Assembly (NCBI GenBank): GCA_963828195.1
Contig: CAWHDT010000004.1
Span: 1 to 64,000, forward strand
From: Candidatus Bathyarchaeota archaeon
Lineage (GTDB): Archaea; Thermoproteota; Bathyarchaeia; Bathyarchaeales; Bathycorpusculaceae
DNA: 64,000 bases
Reading direction: 5' to 3'
The notes beneath the pieces are model-generated. The model saw only the letters and a program-made list of their open reading frames with translations, made no database searches and had not been told where the DNA came from. Below, one piece after another: positions 10,782 to 14,836 of this stretch. The position numbers and the translations under genes are program-made. The first letter of the stretch is position 1; each line of letters begins with the position of its first letter.

Positions 10782-11681
10782 TTAGGCTGGTGGAGGTGGC
10801 GGCGGTGGCGGCAGAGGTAGATTGCTGCTGCGCTTTCTTTGATACATCAAGGCTGTTATTGCAACGACGACAACCACGATTACGCCCGCGATAATAATGT
10901 AAATTAAATCGGGAATTCCAGAAGGCGACGACGTGGTAGATCCCGGTGTTCCCGAAGGAGCCGTACCGCCTCCTTGAAGACTTGAAGTTTGAGCTGAAAT
11001 GCTGTAGTTTGCGATTTCAGCTGACAGAGTTGCTGTCGCGTCGAATTCAATTACTGTAAAAACTGTGCCGTTATTCGGGGCTAAGGAACCGTTGATTACA
11101 TCGAATCCTACAGCAACTACCGTGCCTGCAGCGTTATAGAAAGTGCCAACTACTTTGATGCCGGTTGCAGTTTGGTCCCCCATGTTTGATACGGATCCTA
11201 TGACCGTATACGCGTTGTCTTCAACACCGCTGTAGACTGCGTCTATAGATAAGCCGGTGTACTGTTGGCTATTAGTCTGGGGCGCACTAGTAACGGTGAA
11301 TTCAATATTGCTTACGCTTGAGGCTGTCAAGGTTTGACCGGCGCCCGGGTTGCCGAAGTCAACGTAAAAAGGTGCCTTTTGATCTTGAACAAGATAACTT
11401 CCATAGGGCATAACGCCGCTTGAAGACACCAATTCTGTTCCGCCCGATTCATAAGCCGCCGCTGTCAAAGTCACTTCCGACACGTTCTCGGTACCGGTGT
11501 TCTGCACTTCGCCCACCGCGATTAAATCCCCAGCCGCATTAACATACCATGTGTAGCTTACAACTTTAATGTTGGTTGGTACAGTTGGTGCTGTTGTTTG
11601 GCTGAAAGCTTTTGGAATAGAAACTAAACCTAAACACATTATGGCTGCAATCAACGCAGCAAAGACTTTAGACTTCTTCAT
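10782..11681 (-). CDS. Secreted FxLYD-domain protein with C-terminal TM and cytoplasmic poly-Pro tail
   Basis: Signal peptide; two GEVQNTG / GSVSNMG...GTFYNAAG Ig-like FxLYD-type repeats; TM; tail LPLPPPPPPPPA. Confidence 0.8.
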   Translation of the reverse strand: MKKSKVFAALIAAIMCLGLVSIPKAFSQTTAPTVPTNIKVVSYTWYVNAAGDLIAVGEVQNTGTENVSEVTLTAAAYESGGTELVSSSGVMPYGSYLVQDQKAPFYVDFGNPGAGQTLTASSVSNIEFTVTSAPQTNSQQYTGLSIDAVYSGVEDNAYTVIGSVSNMGDQTATGIKVVGTFYNAAGTVVAVGFDVINGSLAPNNGTVFTVIEFDATATLSAEIANYSISAQTSSLQGGGTAPSGTPGSTTSSPSGIPDLIYIIIAGVIVVVVVAITALMYQRKRSSNLPLPPPPPPPPA

Positions 11682-11969: not shown

Positions 11970-12074
11970 AAAAAAGGTGAGTTTCCTACTTAACGATTGG
12001 AAGATAAAACCCGTATTCAGGAAGAGAGAGGGGGAAATACGTTCCAACCGTTTCGTAGGCACTCCTCACCTGCC
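11970..12074 (-). ncRNA. Candidate ~100-nt small structured RNA
   Basis: Minus-strand AAAAATTTATATT promoter at 12107-12095. Transcript folds AGGTGAG/CTCACCT, CCTAC/GTAGG, AACGGTTGGAA/TTCCAATCGTT and CGTATT/AATACG around a C/U-rich loop, and ends in T6. No ORF. Confidence 0.6.
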
Positions 12075-12295
12075 AAGTTAATGCTTGCCTGCTTAATATA
12101 AATTTTTCATATAACCTACCTTTTTGCCACAAATGCTTTCAATAAAAACCAGTGTTAGCTTGTTTTTTGAAGCATTTTAAAAAATGAACTTAAGGACTGC
12201 CACAAGCTGGGAACCTTGATTCAGAGTTGGTCTTTGTCAGCAGATGCTTCAATGTTGATTGCAGATTTGGTTTGAAGTTGTTTGCGGAAGCCTCT

Positions 12296-14836
12296 TTATT
12301 TTTTTGTCCTTTTTGTGAGAACGTAGCTAAGCGCGATAATTCCAAGAACCAATGCAGTAGCTATAATGAGTATTGCTCCAGCCAATGTGGAGTTTAACGT
12401 TGAGTTGCTTGATGGAGCTTGAGTTGGGGACGGGGCAGAAGCTTGGTTAACCACATTGTTGGAGAAGCAGTAAACGTCCCAGTTGTTGCAGCCAATGTAT
12501 AGGTTCCCGTTGGCTATGGTTGGGGAAGACCAGCTGCTGGAAGGCGTAGTGTAGCTTGCTATTTTTGAGCCGCTGTTGTTTGCATCCAATATGAATATGT
12601 GGCGTTCACTAGTTACAACGTAGAGGTAGCCGTCTGCGTAAGAAGGGGAAACGTAGGTTTCATCTCCAGTGTAGAAGCTCCAAATCGTGCTGCCTGTCGT
12701 AGCATCAAGGCAAGCTATGTTGTATTTGTCAATGATGTAGAGGTCACCGTTAACATAGATTGGGGAAGAAACTATGAACTCGGCGGCAGCTGGATCCGTG
12801 AAATTCCAAACAATTTCTCCTGTTAACGCATTTACGCCGTAGTATGACCTCATGTCGGATGAGACAAAAACCATGCCGGCTGCAATCGACGGGGAACCCA
12901 ACATTTCATTGCCGCCTATGAATTCGTATTCGTATGGAAGAGGAAGTTTCCACATTACAGCCCCTGTGTTGGCGTTTAGTTTGTAGAGGGCGCCTGCGGT
13001 TGGTTCTTGAGAGGTGAAGTAGACGGCGCCGTCAGAAACGATTGGAGAAGATTCAATTGGTCCATTGGTTTGAGTCTGCCAGAGGACATTGCCGTTATTT
13101 GCGTCAAGAGCATACATATAGCCGTCTAATGACCCAACGTAAACTATTCCGCCCGACACAACGGGCGAAGATTTAAGCACTATGTCCCCAAAAGTGAAAG
13201 GCAAATCGCCGTTGACAAATGTTTGCCACATGAGGGCACCCGTGTAAGCGTTGAGGCAGTAAACGTATCCGTCATCTCCGCCCGTATAAAGTAGTCCGTT
13301 CGCCACGGCGGGTGAGGATTCAATAGCGTCCTTTGTGGTAAAGTTCCATATGAGGTTGCCGCTCCATGCTCCAAGAGCGTAGATGTTTTTGTCCGTTGAA
13401 CCAACATAGACTATTCCGTCCACAACTGTTGGCGAAGATATGACGGCTCCTTGAGTTGCAAATGTCCAGTCTAAAGAGAGGCTGGAGGGACCCACTTGGG
13501 CAGTTGAGGAGTGAGTGGCATCCGCGCGGAACATAGACCAGTCACTTACTGCGGTTGTGTTAGATCCAAATGCCCAAACCTGGTTAATTCGGTTATATTC
13601 GTCTCCGTTAATTGCGTCGACCGCTGTGGTCACTTCGCCTGGAATAATGTATAAGTCACCGTACGCAACGATGGCGGATTCTCTTGGAGCCAATGCTTCG
13701 ATAGGAAGCTGCCAAATAATTTGCCCCGTGTAAGCGTTCAAACAAGCAAACTGGGAGGTGCCCACTTGCCCACCGTACTCTGCTGATTCACTCGTTGTCA
13801 CATAAACCATGCCATCTGCTACCGTAGGCATTCCTGGCCAAAGAAGCGTCGCATCTGGACCTTTGTATCGCCACACAAGACTACCTGTTTCTGCGTTAAA
13901 GGCGTAAAGATACCCATCTTTGTTCATTTCATAAACCATGCCGTAAGCCACTGCTGGACCAGTAACGAAGTACCCATCAGTGTCTCCCGTCGGCGTATAT
14001 GCCCATACGATTTGACCGTTTGTAGCGTTGAAGCAATACATTGTATTATCGTCACTGCCTCCTCTATAGAACATGCCATCAGAATAAGCGCCGTCAAAAA
14101 TCATTGGCCCCTTCGTAGCAGTGTCCCAAACGATTGCTCCAGTTGTTGCATTAAGCGCCATTTGTTGACTCATGAAACAGCCCGGAAACACCAAGCCGTC
14201 ACCGTATGTTGTTCCAGTACCTGTGATGTCGCCGCCAGGGATGTAGGTTTGCCAAGCCATTGTTGGCGGATTCGCTGGATCAGAAAAACTCCAAGCTTCA
14301 ATGGTGGAGTTGACTTTTTCGTAGAACATTTGCTCTTCGGGGCTGTAAACGTTGGCGCTGAAAATGCCGGTGTCAGCGCAAAAAGTGGGGCTGGTCCATA
14401 GTATTTTGCCAGTGTTGGGATCAAGACAACTGCTTTCTACAATCATATGTGAACTATCGATTTCGTAGGCTATCGGCCAAGTCCCAACCATCGGAATAGC
14501 TGTTTGCCAGGCGATGTTCCCCGCTTGGTCAAGCGCAACCATTGAGGTGTTGGTACCGACGAAAATCAATCCGTCAAACGCGGCGAGGTAAGGCTGTATG
14601 CCCGTTATGTTCGCTTTCCAAAGTATTGCTGAGGTGTCAGGGGCTGGTCCCGCTGAGAACCGTGTAAAAGAGGAATCGCCTTGAAACTCGGGCCAATCGT
14701 ATGAATTCAAATTACCCAAATTGGAAGCTGTGGTGGTGTTCACCTGTGCAGTTGCATTTTTCTGTAAAGTTGAAGCAAAAACTGATGAAACAAGTAAAAG
14801 AGCCAAAACTAATGCGACTTGAATTTTTCTGGAAAT
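12296..14836 (-). CDS. Secreted PQQ-like (BamB-type) double beta-propeller protein, C-terminally anchored
   Basis: WPEFQGD and WSMFRAD starts of two propellers; many SSP.V.DG.VY.GS / LNA.TG..W repeats; TM + KRTKK. ORF track starts at TTG 14806, but the signal peptide extends in frame to ATT at 14836. Confidence 0.88.
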   Translation of the reverse strand: MSRKIQVALVLALLLVSSVFASTLQKNATAQVNTTTASNLGNLNSYDWPEFQGDSSFTRFSAGPAPDTSAILWKANITGIQPYLAAFDGLIFVGTNTSMVALDQAGNIAWQTAIPMVGTWPIAYEIDSSHMIVESSCLDPNTGKILWTSPTFCADTGIFSANVYSPEEQMFYEKVNSTIEAWSFSDPANPPTMAWQTYIPGGDITGTGTTYGDGLVFPGCFMSQQMALNATTGAIVWDTATKGPMIFDGAYSDGMFYRGGSDDNTMYCFNATNGQIVWAYTPTGDTDGYFVTGPAVAYGMVYEMNKDGYLYAFNAETGSLVWRYKGPDATLLWPGMPTVADGMVYVTTSESAEYGGQVGTSQFACLNAYTGQIIWQLPIEALAPRESAIVAYGDLYIIPGEVTTAVDAINGDEYNRINQVWAFGSNTTAVSDWSMFRADATHSSTAQVGPSSLSLDWTFATQGAVISSPTVVDGIVYVGSTDKNIYALGAWSGNLIWNFTTKDAIESSPAVANGLLYTGGDDGYVYCLNAYTGALMWQTFVNGDLPFTFGDIVLKSSPVVSGGIVYVGSLDGYMYALDANNGNVLWQTQTNGPIESSPIVSDGAVYFTSQEPTAGALYKLNANTGAVMWKLPLPYEYEFIGGNEMLGSPSIAAGMVFVSSDMRSYYGVNALTGEIVWNFTDPAAAEFIVSSPIYVNGDLYIIDKYNIACLDATTGSTIWSFYTGDETYVSPSYADGYLYVVTSERHIFILDANNSGSKIASYTTPSSSWSSPTIANGNLYIGCNNWDVYCFSNNVVNQASAPSPTQAPSSNSTLNSTLAGAILIIATALVLGIIALSYVLTKRTKK

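Follow-up and report, generated by a model that had tools for sequence, protein, structure and literature searches.

The window, a 64,000-nucleotide stretch of Bathyarchaeia DNA, probably holds on its minus strand, at 12108-11970, a stand-alone gene for a small RNA of ~100 nt, the loop of which pairs in trans with the leaders of GH5-type genes and represses their translation. We place the probability of this reading at roughly 0.6. The gene-like anatomy of the locus, its structure and strand, the family to which it belongs and the spread of that family, and the conserved complementarity of the loop were all obtained by computation and are described below.

The minus-strand sequence quoted in the earlier note was read directly at 11970-12107 of the window. 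The putative promoter (12095-12108, minus strand) consists of an A-rich stretch and the TATA box TTTATATT at 12102-12095, and six consecutive T (TTTTTT, 11975-11970, minus strand) mark the predicted 3' end, since archaeal transcription ends at oligo-T. Both signals, which the earlier note had assigned to the RNA itself, recur among the 27 window-type genes collected from 27 genomes. A TATA-like heptamer stands at a fixed distance in 24 of them (offset -24 to -21 from the model start, with one at -30), and a run of at least four T is found no more than 25 nt past helix 1 in 20. The sequence 5' of the TATA box is not conserved in the window-type genes. The spacer that leads from the TATA box to helix 1 (AAGCAGGCAAGCATTAACTTGG, 12073-12094, minus strand) is conserved, being nearly invariant (CAAGCAAGCAAGCAYTARCTT) in nine window-type genes and recognisable in most of the 27. 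From the usual, well-established archaeal TATA-to-start distance, transcription of the small RNA would be expected to start near the 3' end of this spacer, which may itself be a site for a regulator.

The conserved block opens with the TATA box and closes about 25-30 nt beyond the T tract, and flanks are not shared among the loci beyond about 40 nt. The window sequence is present as a single copy in its own genome. Indels of 1, 2 and 3 nt occur in the alignment of the small RNA, which is evidence against a conserved reading frame. On the minus strand, the order is an 836-aa beta-propeller gene, the hairpin and a 299-aa secreted-protein gene, with the hairpin starting 224 nt past the stop of the upstream gene and ending 293 nt ahead of the start of the downstream gene. 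Neighbour genes are not conserved: the 299-aa protein had no homologue at any of the 29 other window-type loci, and the propeller gave a weak match at only one. In another genome (G019), the small RNA faces convergent open frames. The promoter and terminator, as sequence signals, are thus the locus's own and independent of its neighbours, as is characteristic of trans-acting base-pairing sRNAs. Together with the limits of the conserved block and the helix covariation, these features point to a free-standing small RNA gene, in agreement with the earlier note.

The RNA read from 12075-11970 (minus strand) folds with a minimum free energy (MFE) of -39.9 kcal/mol, corresponding to a z of -4.83 when compared with 200 dinucleotide shuffles (mean -24.6, sd 3.2), none of which folded as well. 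The opposite strand of the hairpin gives -35.3 (z -3.81). According to the MFE, the models R1 and R2 introduced below and covariation, the body of the RNA (11975-12071, minus strand) is formed by four nested helices around a C/U-rich loop. The earlier note had drawn these as 7, 5, 11 and 6 bp, and the outer three are present in the MFE structure. All lie on the minus strand: helix 1 joins AGGUGAG (12065-12071) to CUCACCU (11975-11981), helix 2 joins CCUAC (12055-12059) to GUAGG (11985-11989), and helix 3 joins AACGGUUGGAA (12042-12052) to UUCCAAUCGUU (11992-12002). The innermost one has to be redrawn. Its six pairs, CGUAUU/AAUACG, can be drawn in the window RNA, but the MFE has GUA/UAU plus CCC/GGG instead, and relatives keep only CCC(C)/GGG(G) or CCUC/GAGG as the innermost pairing. 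Within the apical region (12003-12041, minus strand), three of C12031-12034 pair with G12010-12012 to give this short inner helix. The lone mismatch in the stem is a G-U pair on the minus strand, as previously noted, and corresponds to g12048-t11996 within helix 3. In the window RNA the 5-bp helix is bounded by two internal loops, of 5x3 and 3x3 nt, whereas the stems of the commonest type are continuous helices of 19-22 bp. No K-turn was evident by eye, and a bulge-helix-bulge (two 3-nt bulges on opposite strands, 4 bp apart) was not seen when the folds were read.

Judged by its model matches, the window RNA is one paralogue of a genus-restricted family of hairpin RNAs. Two models were used, R1 for the commonest type and R2 for the type of the window. 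R1 matched 48 of 61 congeners and, among 151 genomes of the class, only three, all of them congeneric, with nothing outside the genus; R2 matched 46 of 120 congeners. The window RNA scores 99.1 bits with R2 and 30.9 bits with R1. Its own genome contains at least four siblings, at C3:251959, C8:90480, C9:148811 and in the window.

Covariation was assessed in alignments of 27 window-type and 36 common-type genes, both fitted to the models. In the window type, 14 of 23 pairs were altered on both sides (33 such cells, equalled by none of 500 shuffles), and 95.9% of the cells were paired versus 33-54% in slid controls. The changes were distributed over helix 1 (3 of 5 modelled pairs altered on both sides, 100% of cells paired), helix 2 (3 of 5, 96.3%) and helix 3 (6 of 10 modelled pairs, 96.9%). 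The inner CCC/GGG pairing is invariant in the nine closest genes; across the 27, two of its three pairs were altered on both sides, yet only 84.8% of the cells were paired. The common type gave a similar picture, with 11 of 19 pairs altered on both sides (57 cells; 0 of 500 shuffles equal). In the nine closest window-type genes no two-sided changes were found and the shuffles were not exceeded, so the support in this type is owed to R2, which widened the set to 27 genomes. The structure is thus conserved within the genus; a check on conservation in relatives had been proposed in the earlier note. Over 57 distinct family members, 134 G-U cells were counted against 36 A-C cells, and this excess fixes the transcribed strand.

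Searches for known RNA classes left the hairpin without a family. Rfam 15 gave no family at its gathering score in the whole 64-kb window, and the best result of a permissive search was mir-1179, which scored 18.9 bits where 80 are required (E 0.66). Seven other loci of the family yielded one chance-level Rfam match (E 0.63). ARAGORN detected no tRNA or tmRNA genes in the window, and the hairpin did not match the Rfam snoRNA/sRNA models for C/D-box and H/ACA RNAs, which supports the earlier view that it is not a tRNA, C/D or H/ACA RNA. A match to snoR53Y adjoins the hairpin at 12101-12185, far below threshold (18 vs 43 bits, E 2.4). The likeness to Y RNA that had been suggested was not borne out: the Y RNA covariance models gave no match in strict or permissive Rfam runs, and no Ro60/TROVE gene (PF05731) was found in the 96%-complete genome from which the window comes. 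The same PF05731 search, used as a control, found the domain in 2 of 14 reference genomes (Deinococcus and Bacteroides). We conclude that the small RNA is an uncatalogued, real gene.

The proposed seed of the RNA is CUCUCUCUUCCUGAAU (12015-12030, minus strand), which is common to all paralogue types and complementary to GH5 leaders. This loop core is invariant across paralogues whose stems differ and covary, as would be expected of a conserved seed, and in the window RNA its exposure is partial, with part of the seed held in weak inner pairs. The loop CUCUCUCUUCCUGAA(U) complements (A)UUCAGGAAGAGAGAG, a motif located 3-8 nt ahead of the start codon in secreted GH5 cellulase-family genes across the genus. 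In the window's own genome, the longest complements of the loop outside the RNA itself (16, 12 and 12 nt) lie at the start codons of three paralogues, all of them Pfam GH5, and are therefore not independent. The 16-nt complement is perfect and covers -22 to -7 of the GH5 gene G000:C3:190016-192451. The GH5 genes with a matching leader are situated elsewhere in the genome, on other contigs and outside the window.

This complementary site is conserved in relatives, as is expected for the target of a trans-acting base-pairing sRNA. GH5 homologues were read in 18 genomes, 27 in all. A stretch of 11 nt or more of the motif stands 3-8 nt ahead of the start in 23 of them, a shorter part is present in two and two have none, although the proteins are only 32-89% identical. 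The 14-mer TTCAGGAAGAGAGA occurs in 65 copies in 34 of 61 congeners, which by our own classification are 33 loops and 32 leaders, with none elsewhere; the reversed 14-mer, used as a control, was absent from the 61 genomes. Genomes from outside the genus contain the 14-mer at close to background frequency (20 matches in 19 of 360 genomes, compared with 8 control matches), and nine of the 11 matches that were read lay deep inside coding frames.

Leaders with the exact 14-mer are present in 24 of the 61 genomes, GH5 in 20 and the RNA family in 48. The RNA family is thus wider than either, so other or looser targets must exist. All 20 GH5-bearing genomes contain the RNA family, and GH5 is found in 0 of the 13 genomes without an R1 match; the Fisher p for this co-occurrence (0.0027) takes no account of relatedness among the genomes, and completeness is below 90% in 9 of the 13 negatives. 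R2 matched one of these 13. The candidate targets comprise two groups of GH5 genes, one DUF4082 protein and one secreted family that has no name, and a single promoter/leader/signal-peptide cassette is common to them all. Common descent therefore accounts for part of the likeness of the leaders.

Pairing was evaluated with accessibility-corrected energies, in which opening energies are added to the duplex energy, and ranked over 2371 start regions. The window RNA reached -19.6, -20.1 and -12.1 kcal/mol with three of the GH5 leaders (ranks 2 and 3 of 2371, the third at about rank 2), and paired poorly with the fourth GH5 paralogue of its own genome (-4.4 kcal/mol). To open the entire loop window takes about 9.3 kcal/mol in the window RNA and 0.2-5 in the sibling RNAs. 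Variants in the leaders, C-to-U and A-to-G in C5:745962-747590 of the own genome and A-to-G in a leader of genome G014, keep the pairing through G-U. With RNAcofold, the GH5 leaders ranked 1, 3 and 16 of 2442 for a common-type sibling and 66, 120 and 1603 for the window RNA. In RNAcofold a contact between loop and strand can be drawn only if the strong stem is opened, and the program was replaced by the duplex plus opening energies for this reason. Unrestricted duplexfold produced long, stem-invading duplexes of little meaning.

The earlier note had suggested that the loop pairs with purine-rich ribosome-binding sites, and this holds in a narrower form. The loop complements the one conserved leader of secreted GH5-type genes, but ribosome-binding sites in general are not favoured: against 2442 start regions the loop gave a mean duplex energy of -8.87, compared with -8.50 for gene interiors and -8.88 to -9.97 for five shuffled loops. 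A general anti-Shine-Dalgarno role was accordingly rejected. The downstream 299-aa gene was also rejected as a target, since its -9.8 kcal/mol (rank 16 of 2371) is not distinguished from background.

The shared 15-16 bp could instead be a double-stranded DNA operator of one transcription factor, with the RNA complementarity as a by-product, which we consider unlikely though deserving of attention. Such an operator would overlap the transcription start of the GH5-type genes, and its copies within the small RNA genes would be roadblocks or decoys. In the leaders the TATA box is followed after 24-27 nt by the motif, a usual position for archaeal repressors, and the conservation of the motif could therefore reflect a DNA operator. 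A double-stranded site also reads alike whichever strand is transcribed, and the pattern searches are blind to the difference between DNA and RNA function. However, the motif in the RNA genes is always in a hairpin loop, and the covarying stems and the strong bias of G-U over A-C point to selection on RNA. Its orientation is strict, with the purine strand as sense in 32 of 32 leaders and the pyrimidine strand as sense in the RNA genes. Furthermore, it is an asymmetric polypurine tract without dyad or direct repeat, and the few leader variants are wobble-compatible.

It is slightly less probable still that the exposed C/U-rich loop serves to bind or titrate a protein of the Sm-like (as the earlier note had also considered), KH or cold-shock type and does not pair with mRNA. 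The loop that is invariant over the paralogues includes a conserved CCCC part, which is left unpaired by most leaders. The genome does encode LSm proteins, with two genes scoring above the Pfam cut-off, and the several sibling genes per genome resemble protein-sponge RNAs. A sponge nevertheless fails to predict an exact complement of the loop at the starts of one gene set and nowhere else in 61 genomes.

There is little to recommend the view that the hairpins are functionless by-products of rearrangement, whether as inverted copies or remnants of the GH5 leader region or as a small mobile element with inverted repeats. A 48-nt alignment does connect the promoter and leader of the own GH5 paralogue C5:745962-747590 with the antisense strand of the common-type RNA locus, which indicates that leader and RNA loci exchange sequence. 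Against a by-product stand the fixed positions of promoter and T-tract, the compensatory changes in the stems, the invariance of the loop across distinct stem types, and a window sequence that is single-copy and lacks extended common flanks. A cis element, either a terminator of the beta-propeller gene or a leader or riboswitch of the 299-aa gene, is hardly credible: all three share the minus strand and the G/A-rich start of the 299-aa gene pairs moderately with the loop, but the distances to both genes, the conserved TATA box, the lack of conserved neighbours and the convergent frames in G019 speak against it.

Returning to pairing in trans, the loop is the exact complement of a cellulase-type leader, and the small RNA therefore probably controls the amount of enzyme made. 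Production of the RNA, its pairing in vivo and a repressive effect are predicted from the sequence. A promoter and a covarying stem of its own belong to each sibling, with the same C/U-rich loop in all. The loop would base-pair in trans with the purine-rich leader, which appears to make up almost the entire short 5' UTR of the GH5 genes and of a few other secreted-protein genes. Pairing would span about -22 to -7, block the ribosome landing site and lower translation, and perhaps lower mRNA stability as well. Several siblings with different promoters could bring several signals to bear on one set of secreted enzymes. We tentatively suggest, at somewhat worse than even odds, that the sibling sRNAs form a multi-input post-transcriptional switch for secreted cellulase-type enzymes, in which the loop docks on the mRNA 5' end in trans. 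As mutual inverted repeats, the loop and the leader may in addition be sites of recombination at which RNA genes and enzyme genes swap promoters; the hybrid leader of C5:745962-747590 hints at this.

Bathyarchaeia are abundant uncultured archaea of sediments and soils that are thought to degrade plant polymers. We know of nothing on how polymer degradation is regulated in them, and a literature search on small RNAs of Bathyarchaeia or Bathyarchaeota found no article on the subject by title or opening of the abstract. The present analysis offers a concrete RNA, a concrete pairing of 15-16 nt and a defined set of target genes, and tests in vitro or on metatranscriptomes would need no culture. 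The multi-input switch, if real, would be the first case of RNA-based control over polysaccharide breakdown to be proposed for archaea. Masking of a start site by an antisense RNA is a well-known kind of mechanism, so the surprise lies in the lineage, the layout of sibling genes and the link to secreted cellulases, and no new principle is involved.

Several known systems resemble parts of this arrangement. Like Y RNA, the window RNA measures ~100 nt, closes its two ends into a long stem with interruptions and leaves a pyrimidine-rich region open, but it differs in lacking an Rfam Y RNA match and a Ro60/TROVE gene in its genome. The bacterial RsaE/RoxS, LhrC, CcsR 'cuckoo' RNAs and RepG use exposed C- or CU-rich motifs, often against many Shine-Dalgarno targets. 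They share with the window RNA a pyrimidine-rich loop directed at purine-rich start regions and, in some cases, sibling copies per genome; the window RNA is unrelated to them in sequence and complements one specific leader, start regions generally not being favoured. In the IS10 system, the loop of the stable RNA-OUT hairpin pairs with the extreme 5' end of the RNA-IN mRNA and covers its ribosome-binding site. Similarly, the GH5 motif would begin about at the expected transcription start, as judged from the TATA-to-motif distance. RNA-OUT is encoded opposite its target, in cis, whereas the window RNA is far from its predicted targets, which are on other contigs.

In Methanosarcina mazei, loop 2 of sRNA154 with glnA2 and sRNA41 with the ACDS mRNAs have been proposed to repress translation by masking the ribosome-binding site (PMC5867862). 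These are likewise archaeal, separately transcribed stem-loop RNAs with loops complementary to ribosome-binding sites, a property that is predicted for the window RNA. They have experimental support, whereas the window RNA is predicted from sequence. The window RNA has no sequence or Rfam relationship to them and belongs to the Bathyarchaeia lineage, and its family comprises multiple paralogues with one common seed of 15-16 nt. The targets also differ: those of sRNA154 and sRNA41 belong to nitrogen or carbon metabolism, and those predicted for the window RNA are genes for secreted glycoside hydrolases.

The minus strand at 11970-12107, read directly, matches the sequence quoted in the earlier note. 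It carries a TATA box (TTTATATT, 12102-12095), a hairpin with paired ends, placed by sequence and minimum-energy fold (12071-11975), and a TTTTTT tract (11975-11970). The RNA folds at -39.9 kcal/mol, compared with -24.6 ± 3.2 kcal/mol for 200 dinucleotide shuffles, none of which was as good (z -4.83), and the opposite strand folds less strongly (-35.3 kcal/mol, z -3.81). Four nested helices had been proposed; those of 7, 5 and 11 bp are present in the minimum-energy fold, as is the single G-U pair (12048 with 11996), whereas the innermost one of 6 bp can be drawn but is neither predicted nor kept in relatives. ARAGORN found no tRNA, as the note had judged. Rfam 15 at gathering thresholds gave no match across the whole 64-kb window, and the permissive mode only chance-level matches (E 0.66 or worse); membership of an Rfam family was ruled out, as no family matched. 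The suggested likeness to Y RNA fell away, with neither an Rfam model match nor a TROVE gene in the genome. No bulge-helix-bulge motif was seen in the RNA folds. The hairpin shares its stretch with open frames of 48-49 codons; since indels of 1, 2 and 3 nt separate the sequences of relatives, no reading frame is conserved over it.

The exact sequence is single-copy in its own 2.83-Mb genome. In a BLASTN search of 40 relatives, two congeners had full-length homologues (91% and about 80% identity), and many other relatives matched the loop alone, GTATTTCCCCCTCTCTCTTCCTGAA, at 93-100% identity. Once read, these loop-only matches were hairpins with quite different stems and the same loop, several per genome. 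Covariance models were built for the commonest of these sibling types (R1, 14 sequences) and for the window type (R2, 9 sequences). R1 matched 48/61 genomes of the genus at E <= 0.01 (34/38 among high-quality genomes) and recovered the window copy at 30.9 bits, and R2 matched 46/120 genomes of the genus. A class-wide R1 search with strict filters matched three genomes in an even draw of 151, all in the genus; in 10 genomes of other genera of the same family R1 was, under these filters, not found rather than absent. The genome itself holds at least four family members, including R1 matches on contigs C3 (251959-252039, plus strand), C8 (90480-90560, minus strand) and C9 (148811-148885, minus strand). 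We found no report of small RNAs in Bathyarchaeia in the literature searched.

The siblings differ in further details. In a third type, at C8:90440-90620 and six other loci, the stem is longer (TTGGCAAAT…ATTTGCCAA), the loop variant is …CUUCCGAA, and another hairpin stands separately upstream. In many common-type genes the hairpin is immediately followed on its 3' side by another C/U-rich tract, CCCTTCTCTCTCTTC (e.g. at L006:1545-1565), and these genes may hold two pairing sites; the window type has no such tract. At a locus in another genome of the genus (G004:C4:1100-1310, L028), a CCTAA/TTAGG-type 5-nt repeat array directly follows a common-type gene near a contig end, and it may be an assembly artefact or foreign sequence.

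The earlier note had proposed that the loop could pair with purine-rich ribosome-binding sites. Complementarity supports this for one conserved leader, that of GH5-type genes, and not for start regions in general: across 2442 of them the loop pairs no better than shuffled loops, and a general anti-Shine-Dalgarno role was rejected. The 16S rRNA 3' end is GGAUCACCUCCU. The longest loop complement in the genome outside the RNA genes (16 nt, ATTCAGGAAGAGAGAG) lies at -22 to -7 of C3:190016-192451, and two 12-nt complements stop 2 nt short of the start codons in C3:141196-143370 and C5:745962-747590; the remaining complements of 12-13 nt lie within or between genes. The genes at these three start sites are paralogues of one another (about 89% identity); their proteins combine a signal peptide and a Pfam GH5 'Cellulase' domain with Pro/Thr linkers, and their C-termini vary. 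GH5 homologues occur in 20/61 congeners, and at least 11 nt of the motif stand 3-8 nt ahead of the start codon in 23 of the 27 homologues with upstream sequence read, most of them with the full (A)ATTCAGGAAGAGAGA; it is shorter in two and missing in two. Protein identity among these homologues drops to 32-58%. The motif lies 24-27 nt downstream of a conserved TATA element (…CAAAAACCTATAAAA), so the GH5 mRNA should begin at or just ahead of it. The promoter and 85-nt leader of one paralogue (C5:747590-747790) share a 48-nt alignment with a common-type RNA locus (C3:251900-252100), read on its antisense strand, which takes in loop, 3' arm and a downstream promoter-like box. Since the loop forms an inverted repeat with the leader, the flanks could have been exchanged by an inversion between the two.

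The 14-mer TTCAGGAAGAGAGA occurs 65 times in 34/61 genomes of the genus, and its letter-reversed control not once. Classification by RNA-gene and GH5 coordinates, together with reading of 15 unassigned places, put 33 copies antisense to the loop of an RNA gene and 32 immediately ahead of the start codon of a gene that encodes a common N-terminal leader peptide (M-K-T-N-x-L … R-K-L-A-K-P, then a hydrophobic stretch); none of the 65 copies in the 61 genomes lies elsewhere. A start codon was read 3-8 nt downstream for 31 of the 32 leader copies; a copy in the congener G015 adjoins a broken GH5 fragment with no readable start. The leader copies belong to genes from the GH5 homologue search (21), a more distant GH5 group (four, two confirmed by Pfam), an unnamed secreted family (four), a DUF4082 protein (one) and short, probably broken frames (two). 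In genomes outside the genus the 14-mer occurs at close to background level (20 matches in 19/360 genomes, against 8 for the control); 11 of these were read, nine lying deep within long coding frames, one just before an unrelated frame and one in no long frame. A secreted family with no Pfam match, seen at four loci in three congeners (G005, G014 twice, G050), has the sequence …GYWITPVPADQSTG…, a Pro/Thr linker and a Trp-rich tail, and shares its cassette of promoter, leader and signal peptide with the GH5 genes.

With the cost of opening both partners included, the window RNA loop pairs with the three GH5 leaders at -19.6, -20.1 and -12.1 kcal/mol and with a fourth GH5 paralogue at only -4.4 kcal/mol; the common-type sibling reaches -30.6 kcal/mol. 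The leaders are almost unstructured (opening costs 0.8-2.7 kcal/mol). Among 2371 start regions, GH5 genes rank second and third, and first place goes to a site within the beginning of a 111-codon frame; the third GH5 gene, removed by a length filter, would fall at about rank 2. R1 matched 20/20 GH5-bearing genomes and GH5 occurred in 0/13 R1-negative genomes, for which the one-sided Fisher p of 0.0027 overstates the case, as the genomes are related and 9/13 negatives are less than 90% complete. R2 found a window-type match in one of these 13. The RNA family was found in all 24 genomes with a 14-mer leader; another 24 genomes have the RNA but no exact leader, and the target set is therefore wider or looser than defined here.

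Covariation, named in the earlier note as a check, was examined on homologues. The nine closest window-type genes (95.1% of cells paired, no two-sided changes, shuffles not exceeded) vary too little to test the fold. In 27 window-type genes, drawn from as many genomes, the paired share of cells is 95.9%, two-sided changes occur in 14/23 pairs (33 cells), and 0/500 shuffles reach any of five measures. Compensatory pairs number 3/5, 3/5 and 6/10 in helices 1, 2 and 3, and the short inner helix is weaker (84.8% paired). Thirty-six common-type genes gave two-sided changes in 11/19 pairs (57 cells), with 0/500 shuffles as high. Both alignments were fitted to their own models, a bias towards structure; when partners in the 27-gene alignment were slid by 1-3 columns, pairing fell to 33-54%, which argues against an alignment artefact. 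In 57 distinct family members, 838 cells are Watson-Crick, 134 G-U, 36 A-C, 64 other and 11 gaps; from G-U against A-C, the RNA strand is the pyrimidine-loop strand. The main rival to RNA pairing reads the duplex motif as a transcription-factor site present by chance in both kinds of gene, as its place at the predicted GH5 transcript start would allow; we consider this unlikely, since RNA pairing accounts better for the covarying stems that surround the motif, the bias towards G-U, the strictness of strand orientation and leader variants that stay wobble-compatible. A protein sponge, slightly less probable again, would leave the conserved complement unexplained, and a relic or mobile-element origin of the hairpins is improbable given the compensatory changes, for which it offers no account.

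Conservation of the window type begins at the TATA box, continues through a spacer that hardly varies, CAAGCAAGCAAGCAYTARCTT, and then through the RNA with its T tract, and trails off about 25-30 nt beyond the tract. A TATA-like heptamer stands at a constant offset in 24/27 genes, and a run of at least 4 T lies within 25 nt downstream in 20/27. Both neighbours are on the minus strand and resemble cell-surface proteins: upstream a PQQ/BamB-like beta-propeller protein of 836 aa that carries an anchor at its C-terminus (12296-14806), downstream a 299-aa protein (10782-11681) that combines a signal peptide with a C-terminal membrane anchor and a poly-proline tail and matches nothing in Pfam. The hairpin starts 224 nt past the stop of the former gene and ends 293 nt ahead of the latter, which has its own TATA-like sequence closer to it than the hairpin; this spacing and sequence argue against a terminator or leader role. 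Within about 1.5 kb on each side of 29 other window-type loci, no homologue of the 299-aa protein and one weak match to the propeller protein were found, and this lack of conserved neighbours makes a cis element of a neighbouring gene very improbable. The window RNA thus looks like an independent gene. At seven common-type loci, a conserved box, CATCAAATAAAAACTTAGTGAC, lies about 40 nt downstream of the hairpin and, read on the opposite strand, resembles the promoter of the RNA gene itself (GTCAC…TTATTTAT). Transcription from this box would run back over the RNA gene, and the product may be an antisense transcript or a long leader of the next gene. In the genome that holds the window RNA, the gene next to the common-type locus encodes an NrdD-like reductase.

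Gene anatomy, covariation, strand, distribution and conserved complementarity are all computed facts, and the window RNA belongs to a small RNA gene family that is real, uncatalogued and predicted to have a specific, conserved target. We infer that it is expressed and pairs in vivo. Transcribed from its own promoter, it would fold into a four-helix hairpin displaying UCUCUUCCUGAA(U) in or close to the apical loop, which would pair over about 15-16 bp, roughly -22 to -7, with the 5'-terminal leader of GH5-type mRNAs. This stretch falls within the region needed by the small ribosomal subunit, and the expected effect is therefore that translation start is repressed, perhaps with quicker decay. 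Siblings with different promoters could feed different signals into a single set of secreted enzymes, and the conserved spacer could hold a regulator as another input. Through the family, enzyme regulation becomes open to testing in an archaeal group that is uncultured and ecologically important.

The window RNA resembles the IS10 RNA-OUT/RNA-IN antisense pair and the CU-loop sRNAs of bacteria. The kind of regulator is already known, and the RNA family is new to it. Among archaea, the proposed masking of the ribosome-binding region would be like that of Methanosarcina mazei sRNA154 and sRNA41, described as RBS-masking sRNAs in a review (PMC5867862).
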